From: a virus
Taxonomy: Duplodnaviria; Heunggongvirae; Uroviricota; Caudoviricetes
DNA length: 6,992 bases
IMG/VR virus record: IMGVR_UViG_2778260997_000016
Coordinates: 1 to 6,992 of that record
Reading direction: 5' to 3' (one strand)
Part shown: piece by piece, positions 1-6,992 of the stretch
How positions within the stretch are numbered: position 1 is the first letter of the stretch
Layout of the letters: each line of letters begins with the position of its first letter
Made by a program: the position numbers and the translations under genes
Notes under the pieces: model-generated
Told to the model about the DNA's origin: nothing
The model's input: only the letters and a program-made list of their open reading frames with translations
Databases searched by the model: none

Positions 1-56
1 GGTATCCGTTCTGCTGAAGTGTCATGGCGTTGATTTTACGGTGACTCTTCGACAGT

Positions 57-83
57 GAAAAGAAAAAAGGCCGCAGAGCGGCC
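57..83 (-). terminator. Rho-independent terminator for the leftward C-int-cargo transcript
   Basis: Perfect inverted repeat GGCCGC-aga-GCGGCC at 69..83. On the minus strand the hairpin is followed directly by TTTTTTCTTTTC (complement of 57..68). It sits about 110 bp downstream of the last minus-strand stop codon (193..195). Confidence 0.55.
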
Positions 84-192
84 ATAATTACATTCAAAAA
101 TCAATAAGTTACATGATTATCAATAACTTACAGACACACAAAAACACAGCCAACCACAGCAAGTAACAGTGATGTGGTCACTTTGTGGATCA

Positions 193-630
193 TCAGCCAA
201 CAAATTTAGCAACAAAATACGCGACCGCCGCCGTGAAAATGGTTGTGCACACTGGCACAATAATGCCACTCCAACGCCACTTCGTATTATCATCAACCTT
301 GTCAAACCGCCGATTCATCTCATCCATAATCTTGTCAAAGCGTTTATCCATCGCTTCGGTAAGCTCACCCTTCAGGCTGTTAATGTCTGATTTGAGCTGC
401 TCTTTCAGGTTAGCTGTATCAGATTTAAGCTCACCTTTCAGATTCGCAATATCGCATTTAAGCTCACCTTTCAGATGAGCAATGTCTGCTTTGAGCTCAC
501 CCTTCACCTCACCAACATCGGCTTTGGTTGAGAGGTTTGTAGTGCGTTCAGCAAGCGTCGCAAGGTCGTTTCTTGTTAGCGATAAATCACTTTCGAGTCG
601 CTCAATTCGCCTTTCAAGTTTATCTGACAT
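193..630 (-). CDS. Tail-anchored coiled-coil membrane protein with five 11-residue repeats (145 aa from ATG at 628..630; the in-frame upstream ATG at 745..747 would give 184 aa)
   Basis: Listed ORF 193..747. The internal ATG at 628..630 is preceded by GGAGGTGGA, while the extra 39 N-terminal residues are Gly/Ser-rich low complexity, so the shorter form is preferred. Five tandem units D-x-x-x-L-K-G-E-L-K-x are followed by a basic stretch and a C-terminal hydrophobic helix WRWSGIIVPVCTTIFTAAVAYFVAKFVG. Architecture resembles small coiled-coil plus C-terminal TM proteins; no homologue confirmed. Confidence 0.65.
   Translation of the reverse strand: MSDKLERRIERLESDLSLTRNDLATLAERTTNLSTKADVGEVKGELKADIAHLKGELKCDIANLKGELKSDTANLKEQLKSDINSLKGELTEAMDKRFDKIMDEMNRRFDKVDDNTKWRWSGIIVPVCTTIFTAAVAYFVAKFVG
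355..519. repeat. Five imperfect tandem 33-bp repeats inside the membrane-protein gene
   Basis: Units at 355..387, 388..420, 421..453, 454..486 and 487..519 share the core (T/G)AGCTCACC(T/C)TTCA. On the minus strand they encode DINSLKGELTE, DTANLKEQLKS, DIANLKGELKS, DIAHLKGELKC and DVGEVKGELKA. Confidence 0.8.
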
Positions 631-730
631 TCCACCTCCACTACTGCCGCCATCGCCGCCATGATAAAGCACATCACGCTCAGAATGCGACATACTACCT
701 GCTGAATTACCGAAAAGGTTTCTTGCTACA

Positions 731-1231
731 TTACCCATTTTCACCATCCTGTGCTTTGTCTTTCTCCAACCACTTCAGCACCGCAGACGTACGGTAAAGG
801 CTCAGGTAACCACAATTCAGGCAATGCAGCGTGTAATAAGTTTTGCGCATATCAGGTATGCTCTTAACATCACCCAAAAAAGTATAAGATACATAATGCT
901 TTATGTTCTCTTTAATTAACTCACTCTGCTCCTCCAAGGGTAGATTGTTAAAATTTTCTGGTTTCTTATTTTTATCCCAGCAAAGATCCATACTTTCAGG
1001 CACAGATAATCGAGACGATCCACATGAAGGGCAGACACTGGAAACCCCCCTCTCAGACAAGAAACGGAAGAAGATTTCTGGCGTAATCTCCATCAGCCGC
1101 TCCTTATGTTTATTGACACGACTCATCGACTTCTTATTGATTTCATCAGCTTCTTCTTTGCATTTATCTTCTATATATTTCGATAGTAAATAGTCATATA
1201 ACTCTTTTTTTGTAGGTTTTTTTATTTCCAT
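731..1231 (-). CDS. Zinc-ribbon-like hypothetical protein (166 aa, two Cys pairs CPSCG and CLNCG), AT-rich cargo gene translationally coupled to int
   Basis: ATG at 1229..1231 lies 2 nt downstream of the int stop (TAA, 1234..1236). The minus-strand sequence reads GGAGGAATGTAACTATGG, placing a GGAGGA Shine-Dalgarno 8 nt upstream of the start, inside the last int codons. The gene is visibly more AT-rich than int or gene A. Lys/Glu-rich N-terminus. Confidence 0.7.
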   Translation of the reverse strand: MEIKKPTKKELYDYLLSKYIEDKCKEEADEINKKSMSRVNKHKERLMEITPEIFFRFLSERGVSSVCPSCGSSRLSVPESMDLCWDKNKKPENFNNLPLEEQSELIKENIKHYVSYTFLGDVKSIPDMRKTYYTLHCLNCGYLSLYRTSAVLKWLEKDKAQDGENG

Positions 1232-1233
1232 AG

Positions 1234-2211
1234 TTACATTCCTCCCAAGGGATTAAACCTCACCGCATCCTGCAGGTAATCCGGCGCAAGATGGGCATAA
1301 ATCATCGTTGTCTGAATCTTTGCGTGCCCCAGAATTTTCTGGAGCGTCAGAATATTGCCGCCGTTCATCATGAAATGACTGGCGAAGGTGTGGCGCAGCG
1401 CATGAACAGCCTGGCCGTCAGGAACATCAGGTGCGACCGTTTTGATGACATCGCGAACCAATGGATAATCCAGCGTCGGAAACACCAGTTTCCCGCCCCG
1501 TTTTTTGATCTTTTCAAACAGGCTTTCAGAAATAGGAACGGTACGGTTTTTGCTGTTCTTCGTTTTTGAAAAAGTGATTCGACAATGAAGAACACGGCGC
1601 TGCTCCAGTGCCGCTACCTCGCCCCATCGCGCCCCGGTCGACAGAAGGATTTCGACAGCCAGCCGTTCATCGGGATTTTCAGCCAGTGCATCCAGCAACT
1701 GAACACATTCAGACTTACTCAGATATCCCATTTCGCGCTCGTTAACCTTCATTCCTTTAAGGCCTTGAACGGGGTTATCGTTAAGAAAATGGCCGGATGA
1801 GATGAGTGCGGTAAACATCGCGCTTAACGCCCCAATCTCTCGATTTATGGTGCTGGGCTGTATCCCCTGCTCTATCCTGGACACACGTAGCTCGGTGAGC
1901 ATCGTTGTATTAAGTTTATGCACGCACGGGTCATCCATTGCCTCACTCAAGCGCAGCAATTTAAGGCGCGTGTTATGCCCTGACTTCATTAGCTGACCGT
2001 GGTATTTCCACCACAAGTCAATAAGCACTGACAGCGGACGGCGATCAATGGAGTTTCCTTTCCACTCATTGTTATGCTGTTGCGCCAGCACCCACCGCTC
2101 ATATAAAACTGCATCCGATTTCGTTTTAAATTTTTTACGAATGCGTTTGCCTTTACGCCCCTCCGGGCGCATGTCAAGAAGATATCCTCCCGGAATTGAT
2201 TTTATGCTCAT
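1234..2211 (-). CDS. int: Tyrosine recombinase, P2-family phage integrase (326 aa)
   Basis: Translation from the ATG at 2209..2211 begins MSIKSIPGGYLLDMRPEGRKGKRIRKKF, typical of P2-like Int N-termini. The C-terminal catalytic region has HALRHTFASH and GHAKIQTTMIYAHL, consistent with the R..HxxR..Y signature. The listed ORF extends to 2361 only as open frame overlapping the repressor 3' end; that extension is rejected. Confidence 0.9.
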   Translation of the reverse strand: MSIKSIPGGYLLDMRPEGRKGKRIRKKFKTKSDAVLYERWVLAQQHNNEWKGNSIDRRPLSVLIDLWWKYHGQLMKSGHNTRLKLLRLSEAMDDPCVHKLNTTMLTELRVSRIEQGIQPSTINREIGALSAMFTALISSGHFLNDNPVQGLKGMKVNEREMGYLSKSECVQLLDALAENPDERLAVEILLSTGARWGEVAALEQRRVLHCRITFSKTKNSKNRTVPISESLFEKIKKRGGKLVFPTLDYPLVRDVIKTVAPDVPDGQAVHALRHTFASHFMMNGGNILTLQKILGHAKIQTTMIYAHLAPDYLQDAVRFNPLGGM

Positions 2212-2260
2212 TCGTGAAACCCCAGCGTTACAAGACCACCATGCCCCCAGCGCTCCATGA

Positions 2261-2569
2261 TTAGCCGGGCTGTGTGCCAGTCTTGCGGGGTTTTTGAGAA
2301 GGCGATGTGCTTTTTGGCCCATCAGGGGAGAGAGACGGACTGATCTGCCCAGCAGCCTCATTTGTTTTTCCCGTCATAAGCCAATTCATGTACTTAAAAA
2401 AGCGAGGGTGATTAACAATCTTGATAAGCACTTCGCCCCCTATGTTTTCAATCCGCCCCGTTTCATAACGACGCAAAGTGCCGATAGGCACATCAATCAG
2501 GCCGCAAAATTCTTCGCGCGTTAAATCCTCTGATTCACGAATCACTCTAATTTTTTCACCGATAAGCAT
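2261..2569 (-). CDS. C: Immunity repressor, P2 C-type (102 aa from ATG at 2567..2569)
   Basis: Translation MLIGEKIRVIRESEDLTREEFCGLIDVPIGTLRRYETGR with a Ser/Pro/Gln-rich tail resembles the P2 C repressor as I recall it. An AGGA Shine-Dalgarno sits 9 nt upstream of the ATG. The listed ORF start at 2605 is a GTG that would lie inside the operator palindrome region. The gene is divergent from the rightward early operon and directly upstream of int. Confidence 0.8.
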   Translation of the reverse strand: MLIGEKIRVIRESEDLTREEFCGLIDVPIGTLRRYETGRIENIGGEVLIKIVNHPRFFKYMNWLMTGKTNEAAGQISPSLSPDGPKSTSPSQKPRKTGTQPG

Positions 2570-2665
2570 TGACAGTGTTCCTATAAGTACACTAAGCTTG
2601 CGCACAAGGTGTACTTATAAGTACACCAGATCACAAACAACCACAGATAGCGCAGGTTATCACAC
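2570..2665. promoter_or_regulatory. Divergent immunity switch region (early rightward and repressor leftward promoters) with operator-like repeats
   Basis: Perfect 20-bp palindrome GGTGTACTTATAAGTACACC at 2608..2627. The 11-mer TATAAGTACAC occurs as a direct repeat at 2582..2592 and 2616..2626. A consensus TTGACA hexamer lies at 2569..2574. Exact -10 elements could not be assigned with confidence. Confidence 0.6.
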
Positions 2666-2944
2666 ATGGCAAAAGTCCTGAACACACACGAACAGGCAGA
2701 CTTTGAGCGTTTAGCAGCGTTCTATCCCTACCGCGATGAGCATGGGTTACCAGTACTTGAAGAAAGCCTGAAAGATTACGCAAAGCGTACCAACCAAGCT
2801 GTTAACACAGTGAAAAGACAGGCTGACAGAGGTTCAATTCCCATCAACCAGGATGAAAAGAACTCAAGACGCACAGTAAATCTCTTCGCTCTTTTCCTGA
2901 AAACAATCAGGAGCGCAGAAAAATACGTGCAGATGACAAAATAA
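2666..2944 (+). CDS. Cox/Apl-position small early protein (92 aa), putative excisionase/switch regulator
   Basis: First gene of the rightward operon, immediately after the switch region, which is where cox (P2) or apl (186) sits. ATG at 2666, stop TAA at 2942..2944. Function assigned by position only; no sequence motif was confirmed. Confidence 0.55.
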   Translation: MAKVLNTHEQADFERLAAFYPYRDEHGLPVLEESLKDYAKRTNQAVNTVKRQADRGSIPINQDEKNSRRTVNLFALFLKTIRSAEKYVQMTK

Positions 2945-2958
2945 CGAGGTGTCATTTT

Positions 2959-3297
2959 ATGCTGAAGCAACGCCGTAATTTTCGTACCGGAACAGAACGC
3001 CACGCTAACCGTTTCACTACCAGTGCATCACGCAGCAACATCCGCTACAGCCTGAGTGATACACACGCAACGCCGGATGGCTACCCAGTAAAACAAATCG
3101 GCGAGCACGCCTGGCTGATTGAGAAAGCTGGAATCGTGATCCACAAATGCCCACGCAATCCGTTTACCGGAAACCGCATTTTTGCATTGAGCTGTGGCGA
3201 CAATCAGTTCGGGCAGGATTTCACATTATACGAAGCACTTCGCACGGTTGATCGTCTGCTTCGCGGGCAAAGTTTTATTAAACAGGCTGATTTATAA
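2959..3297 (+). CDS. Hypothetical early protein (112 aa)
   Basis: ATG at 2959 with GAGGTG Shine-Dalgarno at 2946..2951 (7-nt spacing). Same strand and tight spacing as the rest of the early operon. Confidence 0.6.
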   Translation: MLKQRRNFRTGTERHANRFTTSASRSNIRYSLSDTHATPDGYPVKQIGEHAWLIEKAGIVIHKCPRNPFTGNRIFALSCGDNQFGQDFTLYEALRTVDRLLRGQSFIKQADL

Positions 3298-3307
3298 CAG
3301 GTGCTTT

Positions 3308-3622
3308 ATGACCAAAAACCATGCACAAGGTGTATTTATCCGTTTTATTGATTTTCGCGGTGAACTGTTATTACGTGCATCCGCTATTGACGGAGTGACT
3401 CCGGCGGGTAAAAACGGAGCCGACGAAGCCACTTACGTTTATCTGAACGGCACGCGACTGCTTGTGGAACTTCCTACCAGACCGTACGAGAAATCATTAG
3501 CGAAGCTGAAAAGGCACGCCAAGTTAATGGCGATGAACCCTATATCGAAATTATTTGTATGGATTCAGAAGCTGAAATACAGAAAGCAGATTAAAGGGTG
3601 TTGCAATGGACAAAGAATATAA
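3308..3622 (+). CDS. Hypothetical early protein (104 aa as written); 3' part may be frameshifted
   Basis: ATG at 3308 preceded by AGGTG. The listed ORF start at 3194 would overlap the upstream gene and is rejected. The 3' third uses AGA/AGG/ATA codons, while the overlapping frame (3481..3594) reads TVREIISEAEKARQVNGDEPYIEIICMDSEAEIQKAD with common codons; see findings. Confidence 0.45.
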   Translation: MTKNHAQGVFIRFIDFRGELLLRASAIDGVTPAGKNGADEATYVYLNGTRLLVELPTRPYEKSLAKLKRHAKLMAMNPISKLFVWIQKLKYRKQIKGCCNGQRI

Positions 3623-3848
3623 AACACTCATCAACAAAGCACTTGAGCGTTTTTATTTTCGCTTAAGTGCATCAGGTACTCATGCTGAACGTGCAGCCCG
3701 TGACTCATTAACCAGGGCAATCCGGAGTCTGTATGACGTGGCTTTTTACGCTGATGATCTGGATGCACTTAACGAACTTTCCGAGCTGATCTGTGCCGCA
3801 GAATGCGGGGAGCATATTGAACCGTATAAGCTGGGGAATATTGCATGA
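3606..3848 (+). CDS. Hypothetical early protein (80 aa)
   Basis: ATG at 3606 with an AGGGTG-like Shine-Dalgarno upstream. Its stop TGA (3846..3848) overlaps the next ATG (3845..3847). Confidence 0.6.
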   Translation: MDKEYKTLINKALERFYFRLSASGTHAERAARDSLTRAIRSLYDVAFYADDLDALNELSELICAAECGEHIEPYKLGNIA

Positions 3849-3958
3849 GTATATTTATCTCATGGCTTGTTCTGATTATTTCGGTGGTCTGCGCCATTGG
3901 GATTATGCGAATTATTCGTTCAGTAAAAAAGATTGACCGCTTTTTCACTGGCGAATAA
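3845..3958 (+). CDS. Small hydrophobic membrane peptide (37 aa), not in the supplied ORF track
   Basis: ATG at 3845..3847 overlaps the upstream stop as ATGA. Translation is MSIFISWLVLIISVVCAIGIMRIIRSVKKIDRFFTGE with stop TAA at 3956..3958: one predicted TM helix followed by a basic tail. Confidence 0.4.
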   Translation: MSIFISWLVLIISVVCAIGIMRIIRSVKKIDRFFTGE

Positions 3959-4045
3959 CAGCGCAAATAAAAACCCTAGGTTAAATAAGAAAATGTAAAA
4001 ACAATCCGCATTCGCGGAGGTATTCGCACACGCCCAGGAGGTGTA

Positions 4046-4249
4046 ATGGCAATTAAGCATTTTCCTGTCGTTCGTTTCACTTCCAGAGGACGTGAATACG
4101 AAGTCGACGAACGCCTGATTACCACAATCGACAAACACCGCTCAGAAAAGGATGCACACCACATCTATCTCACTGACGGTACTTACTTCTGCGCCACTAA
4201 TGTGGCGCGGGTGAATCTTATCCGACAGGTACAGGATCCACGCAAATGA
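4046..4249 (+). CDS. Hypothetical early protein (67 aa)
   Basis: ATG at 4046 with a strong AGGAGGTG Shine-Dalgarno at 4036..4043. Its stop TGA (4247..4249) overlaps the next start. Confidence 0.65.
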   Translation: MAIKHFPVVRFTSRGREYEVDERLITTIDKHRSEKDAHHIYLTDGTYFCATNVARVNLIRQVQDPRK

Positions 4250-4464
4250 GCAGGAGAAGAATCACTCGCAAACATCACCGCACACACCTGAATTCCTCAG
4301 CAACGCTAAAGGCACTTATTAAAAGCGAGATCGGTGATTTCTTCGCGGGAGTTGGCTCGCCAGGTGAACCAGAAACACCAGAAGCGATACAGCGTGAGCT
4401 CATGATACGCATAGATAGCACTTTTGATTTCTTCTACAGCATGCACGGAATTAAACAGAAATGA
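4246..4464 (+). CDS. Hypothetical early protein (72 aa)
   Basis: ATG at 4246..4248 overlaps the upstream stop (ATGA), with an AGGA about 9 nt upstream. Stop TGA at 4462..4464. Confidence 0.6.
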   Translation: MSRRRITRKHHRTHLNSSATLKALIKSEIGDFFAGVGSPGEPETPEAIQRELMIRIDSTFDFFYSMHGIKQK

Positions 4465-4572
4465 ACCTCAAGCCAGCAATAACTACTCGTAGAACGCCAA
4501 TTCCTGTAACCGACCGCTTCTGAGTTTTTTGGCAGGAAGCCTTCGCACATCCTTAGTAGAGAGAATTGCAGC

Positions 4573-4962
4573 ATGATTGACGCTCATGACTTCACAAGAT
4601 GGGTGCGCACACAGGACACCCGTCTGGCTCCCGTTCTTCAGGGATTATTTGATCTCTACATCCGTAGTCGTGACAACAGAGCACGCACTACAAAACCGGA
4701 GAATGCAGACACCCTTTATTTCACAGTAGACGACTGCTACCGCGTGGACTTAACACCACACGGACTGGCGTTGCACTGCCTGACACCGCACGGCGAATCA
4801 CTGCTGGCGTATTACGACTCCCCGGCCTCCGTATTTGCGGCAATGCTGGCGCATCGCACTGCTGGCGGGTGTGCCTCGCTGAGTGAATACACCGCTGAGT
4901 TTAACCGCCTTTCCGCCCTCTTCTCGCAGGAGTGGCAGCGCGTGACGGGATACCAGCCATGA
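4573..4962 (+). CDS. Hypothetical early protein (129 aa) immediately upstream of, and coupled to, gene A
   Basis: ATG at 4573. Its stop TGA (4960..4962) overlaps the gene A start ATG (4959..4961). Confidence 0.65.
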   Translation: MIDAHDFTRWVRTQDTRLAPVLQGLFDLYIRSRDNRARTTKPENADTLYFTVDDCYRVDLTPHGLALHCLTPHGESLLAYYDSPASVFAAMLAHRTAGGCASLSEYTAEFNRLSALFSQEWQRVTGYQP

Positions 4963-6992
4963 GTGCGTTTGCATGGAGCTGGAATGAACCACGACCAGCT
5001 ATTGATCCGGCCAGATTTACGGAGCGCAGGCAGGAAACTGAAACCGACCTGCAACGCGCCATCCGTTACTACCTTGAGGCGGACAAAAGGGCACAGGAAG
5101 AACAGGAAGCGAAGGAAGAAGCCTTTTTCGCACAATCCGCCATGGGTAAAAAACTCATGGCATCCCTTGAGGAAGCCGGACAGCGTGAAAAGCTGGCACA
5201 GAGCATCATCAGTAAGCGCCGGGCAACAGAACAAGACCCGGTGGCCCGTGCTTTTGCCACACTGAAGGTGCTTCCCGTTTATCTGCGTGAACCTCTGAGC
5301 CGCCACCTCTCTTTCCTGCGCAAAAAACAGGAATCCGATCGTCAGAAAGGCAAAAAGAGCTGGCAGGCTGAACGCTACGCGCGCGGAACCCTGCGCAAAA
5401 TATTCGTACGTCTGGACCGCACCGACAGCCGTTGGCTGACACCGGGTTATCGGTCCCTTGCCGGACGTGAACGCCTGGACGATTTGCTTTACCTGCCGCA
5501 GCTCAACAAACACCAGATACAGACGCTGGCCACCATGACGGCGGCGATGTTCAGCAGCACCTTCGAAAAACTCTGCGATGGCTTTGGCGCGACCGATGGC
5601 GAACTGACCATGGATGTAACGCTGAAGGCGTATCAGATGCTGGCCCGCATGGCGTTACACCTGCACATCATGCCTCCACATTATGACGCACTGACAACAG
5701 ATAAAGACCGGAGGAACGAACCGGACACGGAGCTGCTGCCGGGCGCAATCCTTCGCCTGACCTGTACGGAATGGTGGAAACGCAAACTGTGGCTGTTACG
5801 TTGCGAGTGGAGAGAAGAACAACTCCGCGCCGCCTGTCTGGTTTCCAGAAAAACATCGCCCTATCTGAGCCAGGACGCATTAAGCGAGTTTCGCGCACAG
5901 CGCGAGAAAACACGCGATTTCCTGAAAAGTTTCATGCTGGAAAACGAAGATGGATTCACGATTGATCTCGAGACAGTGTATTACGCGGGAGTAAGTAACC
6001 CGGTTCACCGTAAGGCAGAAATGATGGCCACCATGAAGGGGCTGGAACTTCTGGCCGAAGCCCGTGGCGACAAAGCGGTGTTTCTGACTGTCACCTGCCC
6101 GTCAAAATACCACGCCACAACAGAGAACGGTCATCCGAATCCCAAATGGAACGGGGCCACCATGCGCGACTCCAGCGATTACCTGGTTAACACGTTTTTT
6201 GCGGCGGTCCGCAAAAAACTGAACCGCGATGGCCTGCGCTGGTATGGCATCCGCACGGTGGAGCCTCACCATGACGGCACCGTGCACTGGCATATGATGG
6301 TCTTTGCTCATCCGGAAGAAATCGACACTATTGTGTCCCACACCCGCGATATTGCCATTCAGGAAGATCGTCACGAGCTGGGTGATGATATTACCCCACG
6401 CTTTAAGGCGGAGTACGTCGACGGCTCAAAAGGCACACCGACCAGCTACATCGCCACCTACATCGGGAAAAACCTGGACAGCCGTGCCGTGGATGGCATC
6501 GACCCGAAAACGGGCAAGCCACGCGTTGACCACGAAACCGGAAAATCAATGGCCGAGAGCGTGGAACGCGCCATCGGCTGGGCGCGCCTTCACCGGGTCC
6601 GCCAGTTCCAGTTCTTTGGCATCCCCTCCCGCCAGGTATGGCGTGAACTGCGCCGCCTTGCCAGCCAGATGGCACGCAACCCGGAAGGCCCGCAACGGCT
6701 GAAGGATGACGCAATGGATGCGGTTCTTGCCGCCGCTGATGCCGGATGTTTTGCCACCTACATAGAGAAACAGGGCGGCGTACTTGTTCCACGCAAAGAC
6801 TACCTGATTCGCACCGCCTACGACCTCGCCGATGAGCTGAACGATTACGGCGAACAGAGCGTACAGATTTACGGGATCTGGTCGCCATTCATCGGGGAAT
6901 CCTCCCGTGTGTGCACGCATCCGGATAACTGGAAGCTGGTAAGACGTAAACCGGAAGCGGAAGACAGCGCCCGCGAAAATGGTTTTGACCTT
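4959..6992 (+). CDS. A: Replication initiation protein A, HUH-type rolling-circle endonuclease; 3' end truncated by the window (678 codons present)
   Basis: Frame opens at ATG 4959 and continues without a stop to the window end, so it is absent from the ORF track. Translation contains the HUH motif VHWHMMVF (codons at 6285..6293) and paired tyrosines YIATY (6447..6461). Overall resemblance to the P2 gpA family, last gene of the early operon. Confidence 0.9.
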   Translation, partial: MSAFAWSWNEPRPAIDPARFTERRQETETDLQRAIRYYLEADKRAQEEQEAKEEAFFAQSAMGKKLMASLEEAGQREKLAQSIISKRRATEQDPVARAFATLKVLPVYLREPLSRHLSFLRKKQESDRQKGKKSWQAERYARGTLRKIFVRLDRTDSRWLTPGYRSLAGRERLDDLLYLPQLNKHQIQTLATMTAAMFSSTFEKLCDGFGATDGELTMDVTLKAYQMLARMALHLHIMPPHYDALTTDKDRRNEPDTELLPGAILRLTCTEWWKRKLWLLRCEWREEQLRAACLVSRKTSPYLSQDALSEFRAQREKTRDFLKSFMLENEDGFTIDLETVYYAGVSNPVHRKAEMMATMKGLELLAEARGDKAVFLTVTCPSKYHATTENGHPNPKWNGATMRDSSDYLVNTFFAAVRKKLNRDGLRWYGIRTVEPHHDGTVHWHMMVFAHPEEIDTIVSHTRDIAIQEDRHELGDDITPRFKAEYVDGSKGTPTSYIATYIGKNLDSRAVDGIDPKTGKPRVDHETGKSMAESVERAIGWARLHRVRQFQFFGIPSRQVWRELRRLASQMARNPEGPQRLKDDAMDAVLAAADAGCFATYIEKQGGVLVPRKDYLIRTAYDLADELNDYGEQSVQIYGIWSPFIGESSRVCTHPDNWKLVRRKPEAEDSARENGFDL

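Follow-up and report, generated by a model that had tools for sequence, protein, structure and literature searches.

The DUF1640/CCDC90-like family (PF07798) includes human MCUR1 and CCDC90B, yeast Fmp32, and archaeal and bacterial homologues. Its members are reportedly trimeric head-neck-stalk-anchor proteins, said to be described in Adlakha et al. 2019 (Structure 27:464). Hartmann et al. gave the consensus [aliphatic]-A-T-K-[polar]-[DE] for the beta-layer motif, which is prominent where the C-terminal stalk of DUF1640 membrane proteins begins, and every beta-layer construct in that study is a trimer (PMC4786415). An 11/3 periodicity is that of hendecad coiled coils (PMC4786415). Here we analyze a 6,992-nucleotide stretch of DNA (the window; positions 1 to 6,992 of the IMG/VR Caudoviricetes record IMGVR_UViG_2778260997_000016) with a gene for a tail-anchored protein, the stalk gene, that contains five tandem 33-bp repeats. 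We find it likely that these repeats encode the variable part of a hendecad coiled-coil stalk in a DUF1640/CCDC90-like inner-membrane protein carried as prophage cargo. Like the DUF1640/CCDC90 proteins, the window protein has a single C-terminal transmembrane (TM) segment, a predicted coiled-coil stalk and a neck motif of the A-T-K-x-D type that opens the stalk. In contrast to them, a disordered peptide, followed by a Gly linker and a short heptad helix, takes the place of the head; Leu, and not the Thr of the ATK motif, occupies core position 9 of its stalk repeat; and it is prophage-encoded and coupled to a zinc-ribbon gene, with no tie to the calcium uniporter or to mitochondria. The parts of the gene are as follows.

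193-738, minus strand: stalk gene (tail-anchored, DUF1640/CCDC90-like), 181 aa, stop codon at 193-195
631-738, minus strand: N-terminal extension, 36 aa, with the Gly-rich end HGGDGGSSGGG, predicted disordered
535-630, minus strand: N-terminal helix MSDKLERRIERLESDLSLTRNDLATLAERTTN, 32 aa, heptad-like period 3.56, beginning at an internal Met
517-534, minus strand: neck motif L-S-T-K-A-D, whose D is residue 1 of unit 1
487-519, minus strand: unit 1, DVGEVKGELKA
454-486, minus strand: unit 2, DIAHLKGELKC
421-453, minus strand: unit 3, DIANLKGELKS
388-420, minus strand: unit 4, DTANLKEQLKS
355-387, minus strand: unit 5, DINSLKGELTE
289-354, minus strand: two degenerate membrane-proximal hendecads, AMDKRFDKIMD and EMNRRFDKVDD, kept by homologues
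271-288, minus strand: juxtamembrane turn NTKWRW, with an invariant W, before the TM anchor
208-270, minus strand: C-terminal TM anchor SGIIVPVCTTIFTAAVAYFVA, then a four-residue tail, KFVG

On the minus strand, positions 355-519 are made up of five in-frame 33-bp units with nothing over or short. We set the unit boundaries by splitting the open reading frame (ORF) 193..747(-) into 11-codon blocks starting at D77 (184-aa numbering). Tandem Repeats Finder (TRF) reported 360-506 with a period of 33, 4.5 copies, 72% matches, zero indels and a score of 126, and lag-33 self-matches reached 91-95 of 132 nt, as compared to at most 61 in 200 composition-preserving shuffles with the maximum taken across all lags and positions. 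A preliminary description of this DNA, made from the sequence alone, had reported five tandem in-frame repeats here with the unit consensus D-x-x-x-L-K-G-E-L-K-x; the exact units, TRF and the shuffles agree on the former, and the latter is correct. Identity between units is 17-28 of 33 nt (52-85%), and units 2 and 3, the closest pair at 28/33 nt, contain a 21-nt perfect stretch. Differences from the unit consensus number 8/8/16 by codon position, and because third positions hold half of them, we read the 33-bp array as a translated repeat. The degenerate units at 289-354, which are absent from the preliminary description, stay in the 11-aa phase of the array as far as the TM segment.

At the protein level, the best hydrophobic period across aa 77-153 is 3.68 (= 11/3), with a power of 103 as compared to a shuffle 95th percentile of 59, and it persists for 77 residues up to the TM segment, the length of seven hendecads (5 + 2). 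The TM segment IIVPVCTTIFTAAVAYFVA has a mean Kyte-Doolittle hydropathy of 2.14 (best 19-mer at aa 159-177), while values elsewhere are at most 0.15. Both the 11/3 periodicity and the C-terminal TM anchor had been proposed in the preliminary description, and both hold up. When the repeat is drawn on an 11/3 wheel, the strongly hydrophobic seam consists of L5, L9 and I2 only (3/11 residues, about 65 degrees), with an acidic flank of D1/E8 at –75/–108 degrees and a basic flank of K6/K10 at +56/+89 degrees. Because the acidic and basic residues are on opposite flanks, this arrangement fits inter-helix salt bridges in a parallel homo-oligomer and not to the class-A pattern of lipid-binding helices.

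To relate the protein to DUF1640/CCDC90, we consider the neck and the family profile together. LSTKAD fits the beta-layer consensus at the start of the stalk, and its T, K and D (T71, K72 and D74) are invariant in 28/28 homologues, right where the array starts. The family profile matches PDB 6h9l (three chains) at E=4.7e-5, and the KGELK units align with the tandem ATKEDIEALRK 11-mers of that structure; the beta-layer constructs 7o92 and 5apz are matched as well. In Pfam, CCDC90-like (PF07798) is found in 20/28 aligned homologues at E<=1e-3 (best 6.4e-12), and the Prokaryotic Genome Annotation Pipeline (PGAP) labels alleles 'DUF1640 domain-containing' or 'CCDC90 family'. Between neck and anchor, the sequence predicts a continuous coiled-coil stalk. 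Since the homologues match CCDC90-like, though the window protein itself is sub-threshold and is matched over the stalk/anchor half only, we conclude that the stalk protein most likely belongs with the head-neck-stalk-anchor proteins of the DUF1640 type, its head being non-canonical.

Several points weigh against this assignment. The window protein scores 26 bits (E=1e-5), below the PF07798 gathering cut-off of 33.5, and the match covers only positions 68-171 of 175; positions 1-67, the CCDC90-type head, are unmatched, and the N-terminus consists of 35 disordered residues and the heptad helix. An AlphaFold2 monomer model built from the 28-sequence alignment runs a continuous helix through TKAD, where the beta-layer is proposed. 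In this model residues 1-35 are disordered (predicted local distance difference test, pLDDT, <50), one helix spans 37-147 with pLDDT 70-86 over the repeats, and the TM helix spans 150-180. Foldseek returned a single non-significant match for this monomer in the PDB, a search that is uninformative because a lone long helix has no fold information. In addition, each unit has a conserved Gly (KGEL), which is unusual in a coiled coil; it lies on the outer face, at 154 degrees. The start codon of the stalk gene is ambiguous (738/747 as compared to 630), and for expression in the lysogen we rely on gene order and the P2 paradigm.

The repeat is shared well beyond this locus. A profile search of 1.84 billion representative proteins found 3463 at E<=1e-3, of which 381 reach E<=1e-10. 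Of the best small representatives, 137 in number, strong lag-11 self-repeats are present in 115, a hydrophobic segment at the C-terminus in 110 and an [AS]TK.[DE] motif in 79. Their units read DIAxL[RK]xELKx, near-identical to the window unit. As this unit is common to the relatives, the motif of the preliminary description is a family-wide stalk repeat. The search also returned giant proteins of 1,200-3,000 aa (P0075, at 3006 aa, P0079, P0116, P0152 and P0173) with long arrays of related 11-mers, for example LRGEIDSNxxT; these look like fibre or adhesin stalks that match the profile via the repeat only. When we searched 50,697 phage records by tblastn, matches to the stalk protein were confined to Liberibacter phages and a Klebsiella P2-like record. 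Gp26 of Liberibacter phage SC1 has a closely similar layout (LATKAD, then 5 x DIANVRTELKQ, then a TM segment), and SC1/SC2 gp26 and small bacterial proteins of the form ATKxD + (DIAxLRxELKx)n + TM (P0083, P0091, P0094) are, like the window protein, mobile-element- or phage-borne. All of these differ from it in their heads, and no zinc-ribbon partner is seen in SC1, where gp26 adjoins a primase gene. PHROGs places the stalk protein in phrog_9415 ('unknown function'), and NCBIfam gave no functional label.

Some better-known proteins are comparable in part. The F-type ATP synthase b subunit (a right-handed coiled coil), Braun's lipoprotein Lpp and trimeric autotransporter stalks are comparable rods: like them, the stalk protein would be a rigid, membrane-anchored, non-heptad rod with its length set by repeats. 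In contrast, subunit b has an N-terminal TM segment and Lpp a lipid anchor, so that the anchoring is opposite, and the compartments and partners are others. An NCBIfam match to subunit B' (E=0.0098) reflects weak compositional similarity. The stalk protein, and most of all its repeat-less Providencia orthologue, also resembles XhlA of PBSX and other small tail-anchored coiled-coil proteins of phages in being phage-encoded with a short N-terminal coiled coil and a C-terminal TM segment; unlike XhlA, it is encoded in a lysogenic C-int operon and not in a lysis cassette, and XhlA PF10779 scored E=0.19 and 12.4 bits as compared to a cut-off of 34.7.

Repeat number varies among homologues in exact steps. 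Protein lengths fall into 11-aa series for the long form (192/181/170/159/148) and for the short form (156/145/134/123/112/101), and enterobacterial alleles have 2-7 KGELK-type units when counted from TKxD. One allele (P0003, locus L020) is the window sequence over ~570 nt minus exactly 33 bp, leaving four units, with the deletion junction inside the 21-nt stretch common to units 2 and 3; in another (P0002, L021) exactly 33 bp are inserted. A Providencia orthologue of 107 aa has the head, an AKKEDV neck-like motif and the anchor, and zero repeats. All indels among the homologues are multiples of 11 aa, the homologues carry 0-7 units, and the register from neck to anchor is kept in every length variant. 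Thus the preliminary description was right to expect length-variable alleles. That an orthologue exists with zero repeats indicates that the repeats are a dispensable length-setting spacer. In complete E. coli genomes that carry the gene, almost every match is full-length and colinear with the five-unit query, and the five-unit protein clusters have 98 and 44 members while variant clusters have 1-4; because the five-unit clusters dominate and the matches are colinear, repeat turnover appears to be slow.

These data allow us to weigh the coiled-coil stalk against other readings of the repeat. The preliminary description had proposed that the 11-mers are helices of the apolipoprotein, synuclein and LEA type rather than a canonical coiled coil, in a membrane-surface-active protein. 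On such a reading the helices would rest flat against the inner membrane, on its cytoplasmic face, and the protein could be permeabilising. Apolipoproteins A-I, A-IV and E, alpha-synuclein and group 3 LEA proteins do resemble the stalk in their 11/3 amphipathic helices and their tandem-repeat origin; since hendecad coiled coils and apolipoproteins have 11/3 in common, periodicity alone is not decisive. The lipid-helix proposal also draws on Pfam and PDB matches to apolipoproteins A-I/A-IV that are weak and below threshold, on a weak PHROG similarity to holin/XhlA-type proteins, and on the membrane-proximal units (MDKRFDKIMDEMNRRFDK), whose HeliQuest-type D of 0.96 is in the 'possible lipid-binding' range. 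However, across the five units D exceeds 0.68 in just 2/38 windows and never reaches 1.34, and strongly hydrophobic residues make up just 27%. Net charge in the five-unit windows is about –1 to +1, and a mild tendency to seek the surface is seen only in the two membrane-proximal units. The apolipoprotein family PF01442 scores 27.4 bits as compared to a cut-off of 90, and the PDB matches to apoA-IV (E=0.03-0.06) are without any significant stretch. A class-A helix as defined by Segrest has a wide non-polar face, basic residues at both interfaces, acidic residues in the middle of the polar face, and Pro-punctuated units. Here we found a narrow seam, one-sided and segregated charges, and zero Pro in aa 37-156, hence no Pro-punctuated 22-mers; unlike an apolipoprotein, the protein also has an integral TM segment and an array that opens at the trimer-specific beta-layer motif. 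Homologues lacking the repeat altogether were what the preliminary description itself held would speak against a membrane binder, and the Providencia orthologue is one. We therefore consider the lipid-surface helix quite improbable.

The exact +/–33-bp alleles on otherwise identical backgrounds, the 2-7 units within closely related enterobacterial alleles, and the position of the module in a rapidly evolving cargo slot that has at least three or four divergent allelic types would also suit a contingency locus, in which frequent slippage yields length variants selected for specificity or for escape from a phage factor, a case of adaptive hypervariability. The dominance of five-unit, colinear E. 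coli matches and the tiny variant clusters, which indicate slow turnover, together with a unit identity of 52-85%, a poor substrate for slippage, make this unlikely, if somewhat less so than the lipid-surface helix. Far less credible than either, in our judgment, is that the repeat is a DNA-level element (integrase arm-type sites, iterons or a protein-binding array near attL) and its translation incidental. P2-type attachment sites do have arm-type repeats, and the array is ~270-440 bp from the prophage/chromosome junction; however, the period is exactly 33 bp in frame with half of the differences in third positions, the amino-acid consensus is kept where the DNA differs, the 11-aa motif is found in hundreds of unrelated contexts (including non-phage chromosomes and Liberibacter phages), and Providencia and Klebsiella prophages with related integrases carry zero or two units. 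The hendecad coiled-coil stalk remains the reading that we prefer.

The stalk gene has a neighbor that accompanies it, and the surrounding features are as follows.

731-1231, minus strand: partner gene, 166 aa, phrog_4293 ('unknown function'), predicted zinc ribbon
1234-2211, minus strand: P2-type tyrosine integrase, with its stop 2 nt from the partner gene start
2261-2572, minus strand: helix-turn-helix repressor (P2 C-like), first gene of the leftward operon
60-83, minus strand: intrinsic terminator hairpin GGCCGCTCTGCGGCC and T-run upstream of btuC, stem read 83->69

The partner has four invariant Cys (C67, C70, C137 and C140) and is always directly upstream of the stalk gene, overlapping or abutting it; in the window the stalk ATG at 738 overlaps the partner's stop codon (ATGGGTAA). 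The two genes are translationally coupled. Candidate starts of the stalk gene are ATG 747 (the longest ORF, 184 aa), 738, which is the likely one, and 630, which gives the short form. The frame of the N-terminal extension is open and abuts the partner's stop in every lineage examined. Its pN/pS of ~0.56 (ratio of nonsynonymous to synonymous change, Nei-Gojobori) is consistent with a coding region under weak constraint and leaves the choice of start codon undecided. Translation may also begin at the internal Met at 630, which follows GGAGGT (634-639); upstream of this conserved Met, the Gly codons GGA GGT GGA (628-639, minus strand) read as a strong Shine-Dalgarno sequence. PGAP disagrees on the start (145 aa as compared to 170/181 aa) and uses the internal Met in several genomes. 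It is conceivable that long and short isoforms are made from the two starts.

Partners come in a long type (160-166 aa) and a short type (120-133 aa), each with its own type of stalk N-terminal peptide. In E. coli STEC388 (L022), a type-2 peptide, together with its short partner, is joined to a helix, neck, stalk and anchor with ~96% DNA identity to the window, and the mosaic junction is exactly at the Gly-rich linker (window 631-651, L022 2982-3095). In this case the zinc-ribbon gene and the first 36 aa of the stalk protein were swapped as one unit. Because partner type and peptide are exchanged together, the sequences suggest that the partner may bind the N-terminal peptide of the stalk protein. 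The partner had no tblastn match in the 50,697 phage records; in PADLOC-DB 2.0 it had none either, and the stalk protein gave only coiled-coil noise (LmuB and ZorA, bits <=22).

The window begins in the E. coli chromosome: positions 1-83 are core sequence, found in 5426/5426 complete genomes. Since the terminator hairpin is the last core sequence, we place the prophage/chromosome junction at ~83/84. From ~84 onward is the left end of a P2-like prophage with integrase, C-type repressor, DUF4761/DUF4754 genes and a GpA replication gene, inserted between ihfA and btuC. The zinc-ribbon and stalk pair closes the C-int operon, with only the borrowed terminator beyond. We found the order C - int - zinc ribbon - stalk - attachment site (att) in E. 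coli and Salmonella prophages at btuC, in Klebsiella prophages at dadX and in a Providencia P2-like element, and the module is present in pathogenic E. coli O157, O145, O103 and O26. The int-att slot is a variable cargo site, and the P2 int-att interval is described as a minor hotspot for defence (PMC13586616). In two E. coli genomes the integrase is ~98% identical and the slot behind it has other contents: MS8345 (L024, 509-1308) has a third, very divergent pair of 120 aa and 145 aa, whose stalk has a FATKSD neck and MAESRQSLKSE-type 11-mers, and O55:H7 CB9615 (L023, 490-885) has a gene for an unrelated 131-aa hypothetical protein.

Some further observations concern the window itself. The leftward prophage operon is directed into btuCED, and read-through could affect expression of the vitamin B12 transporter. 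The longest integrase ORF, 1234-2361 on the minus strand (375 aa), extends 50 codons beyond the annotated 325-aa start and overlaps the repressor end, which is probably an ORF-calling artefact. Antisense ORFs at 169-390 and 185-478 (plus strand) across the repeat are without support and are mirror images of it. TRF also lists short, low-scoring repeats at 3281-3309, 5093-5120 and 6442-6465 (periods 14, 9 and 12; 2-3 copies), probably by chance, and Rfam and tRNA scans of the window returned no matches.

We propose the following picture of how the protein may be built. Judging by relatives of solved structure, the stalk probably forms a homotrimer of parallel helices, with a beta-layer expected at the neck LSTKAD and with the N-terminal 156 residues most likely in the cytoplasm. 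I2, L5 and L9 would form the trimer core, and K6/K10 would pair with D1/E8 of the neighboring helix. Each unit would amount to three helical turns, or ~16 A from helix geometry, and would leave the neck-anchor register unchanged. Because a unit would add length without a change of register, repeat number would act as a spacer that sets the distance between head and membrane. Units may be gained and lost by recombination or slippage between near-identical units, and the pair is probably transcribed in the lysogen.

As to function, we infer that the pair may have an accessory role for the prophage in conflicts between phages or between phage and host, in which the stalk protein would tether the zinc-ribbon partner at the membrane. 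More speculatively, and on balance we doubt it, the zinc-ribbon and stalk proteins could be an undescribed, rapidly diversifying superinfection exclusion or abortive infection system, with the partner docking on the N-terminal peptide of the trimeric stalk and the repeats serving as an evolvable ruler for the distance between sensor/effector and membrane.

Taken together, these data replace a probably mistaken view of the 33-bp repeats, that of a membrane binder like the apolipoproteins, by a better-supported one, in which they form the hendecad coiled-coil spacer of a DUF1640-type protein. The head-neck-stalk-anchor protein is a known structural kind; what is new is a member inside an uncharacterised two-gene prophage module. 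The analysis flags this conserved two-gene cargo module, in a P2-prophage slot recently noted for defence systems, and the natural allelic series, with its clean 11-residue stalk steps, is usable to probe how length relates to function in a widespread, obscure family.
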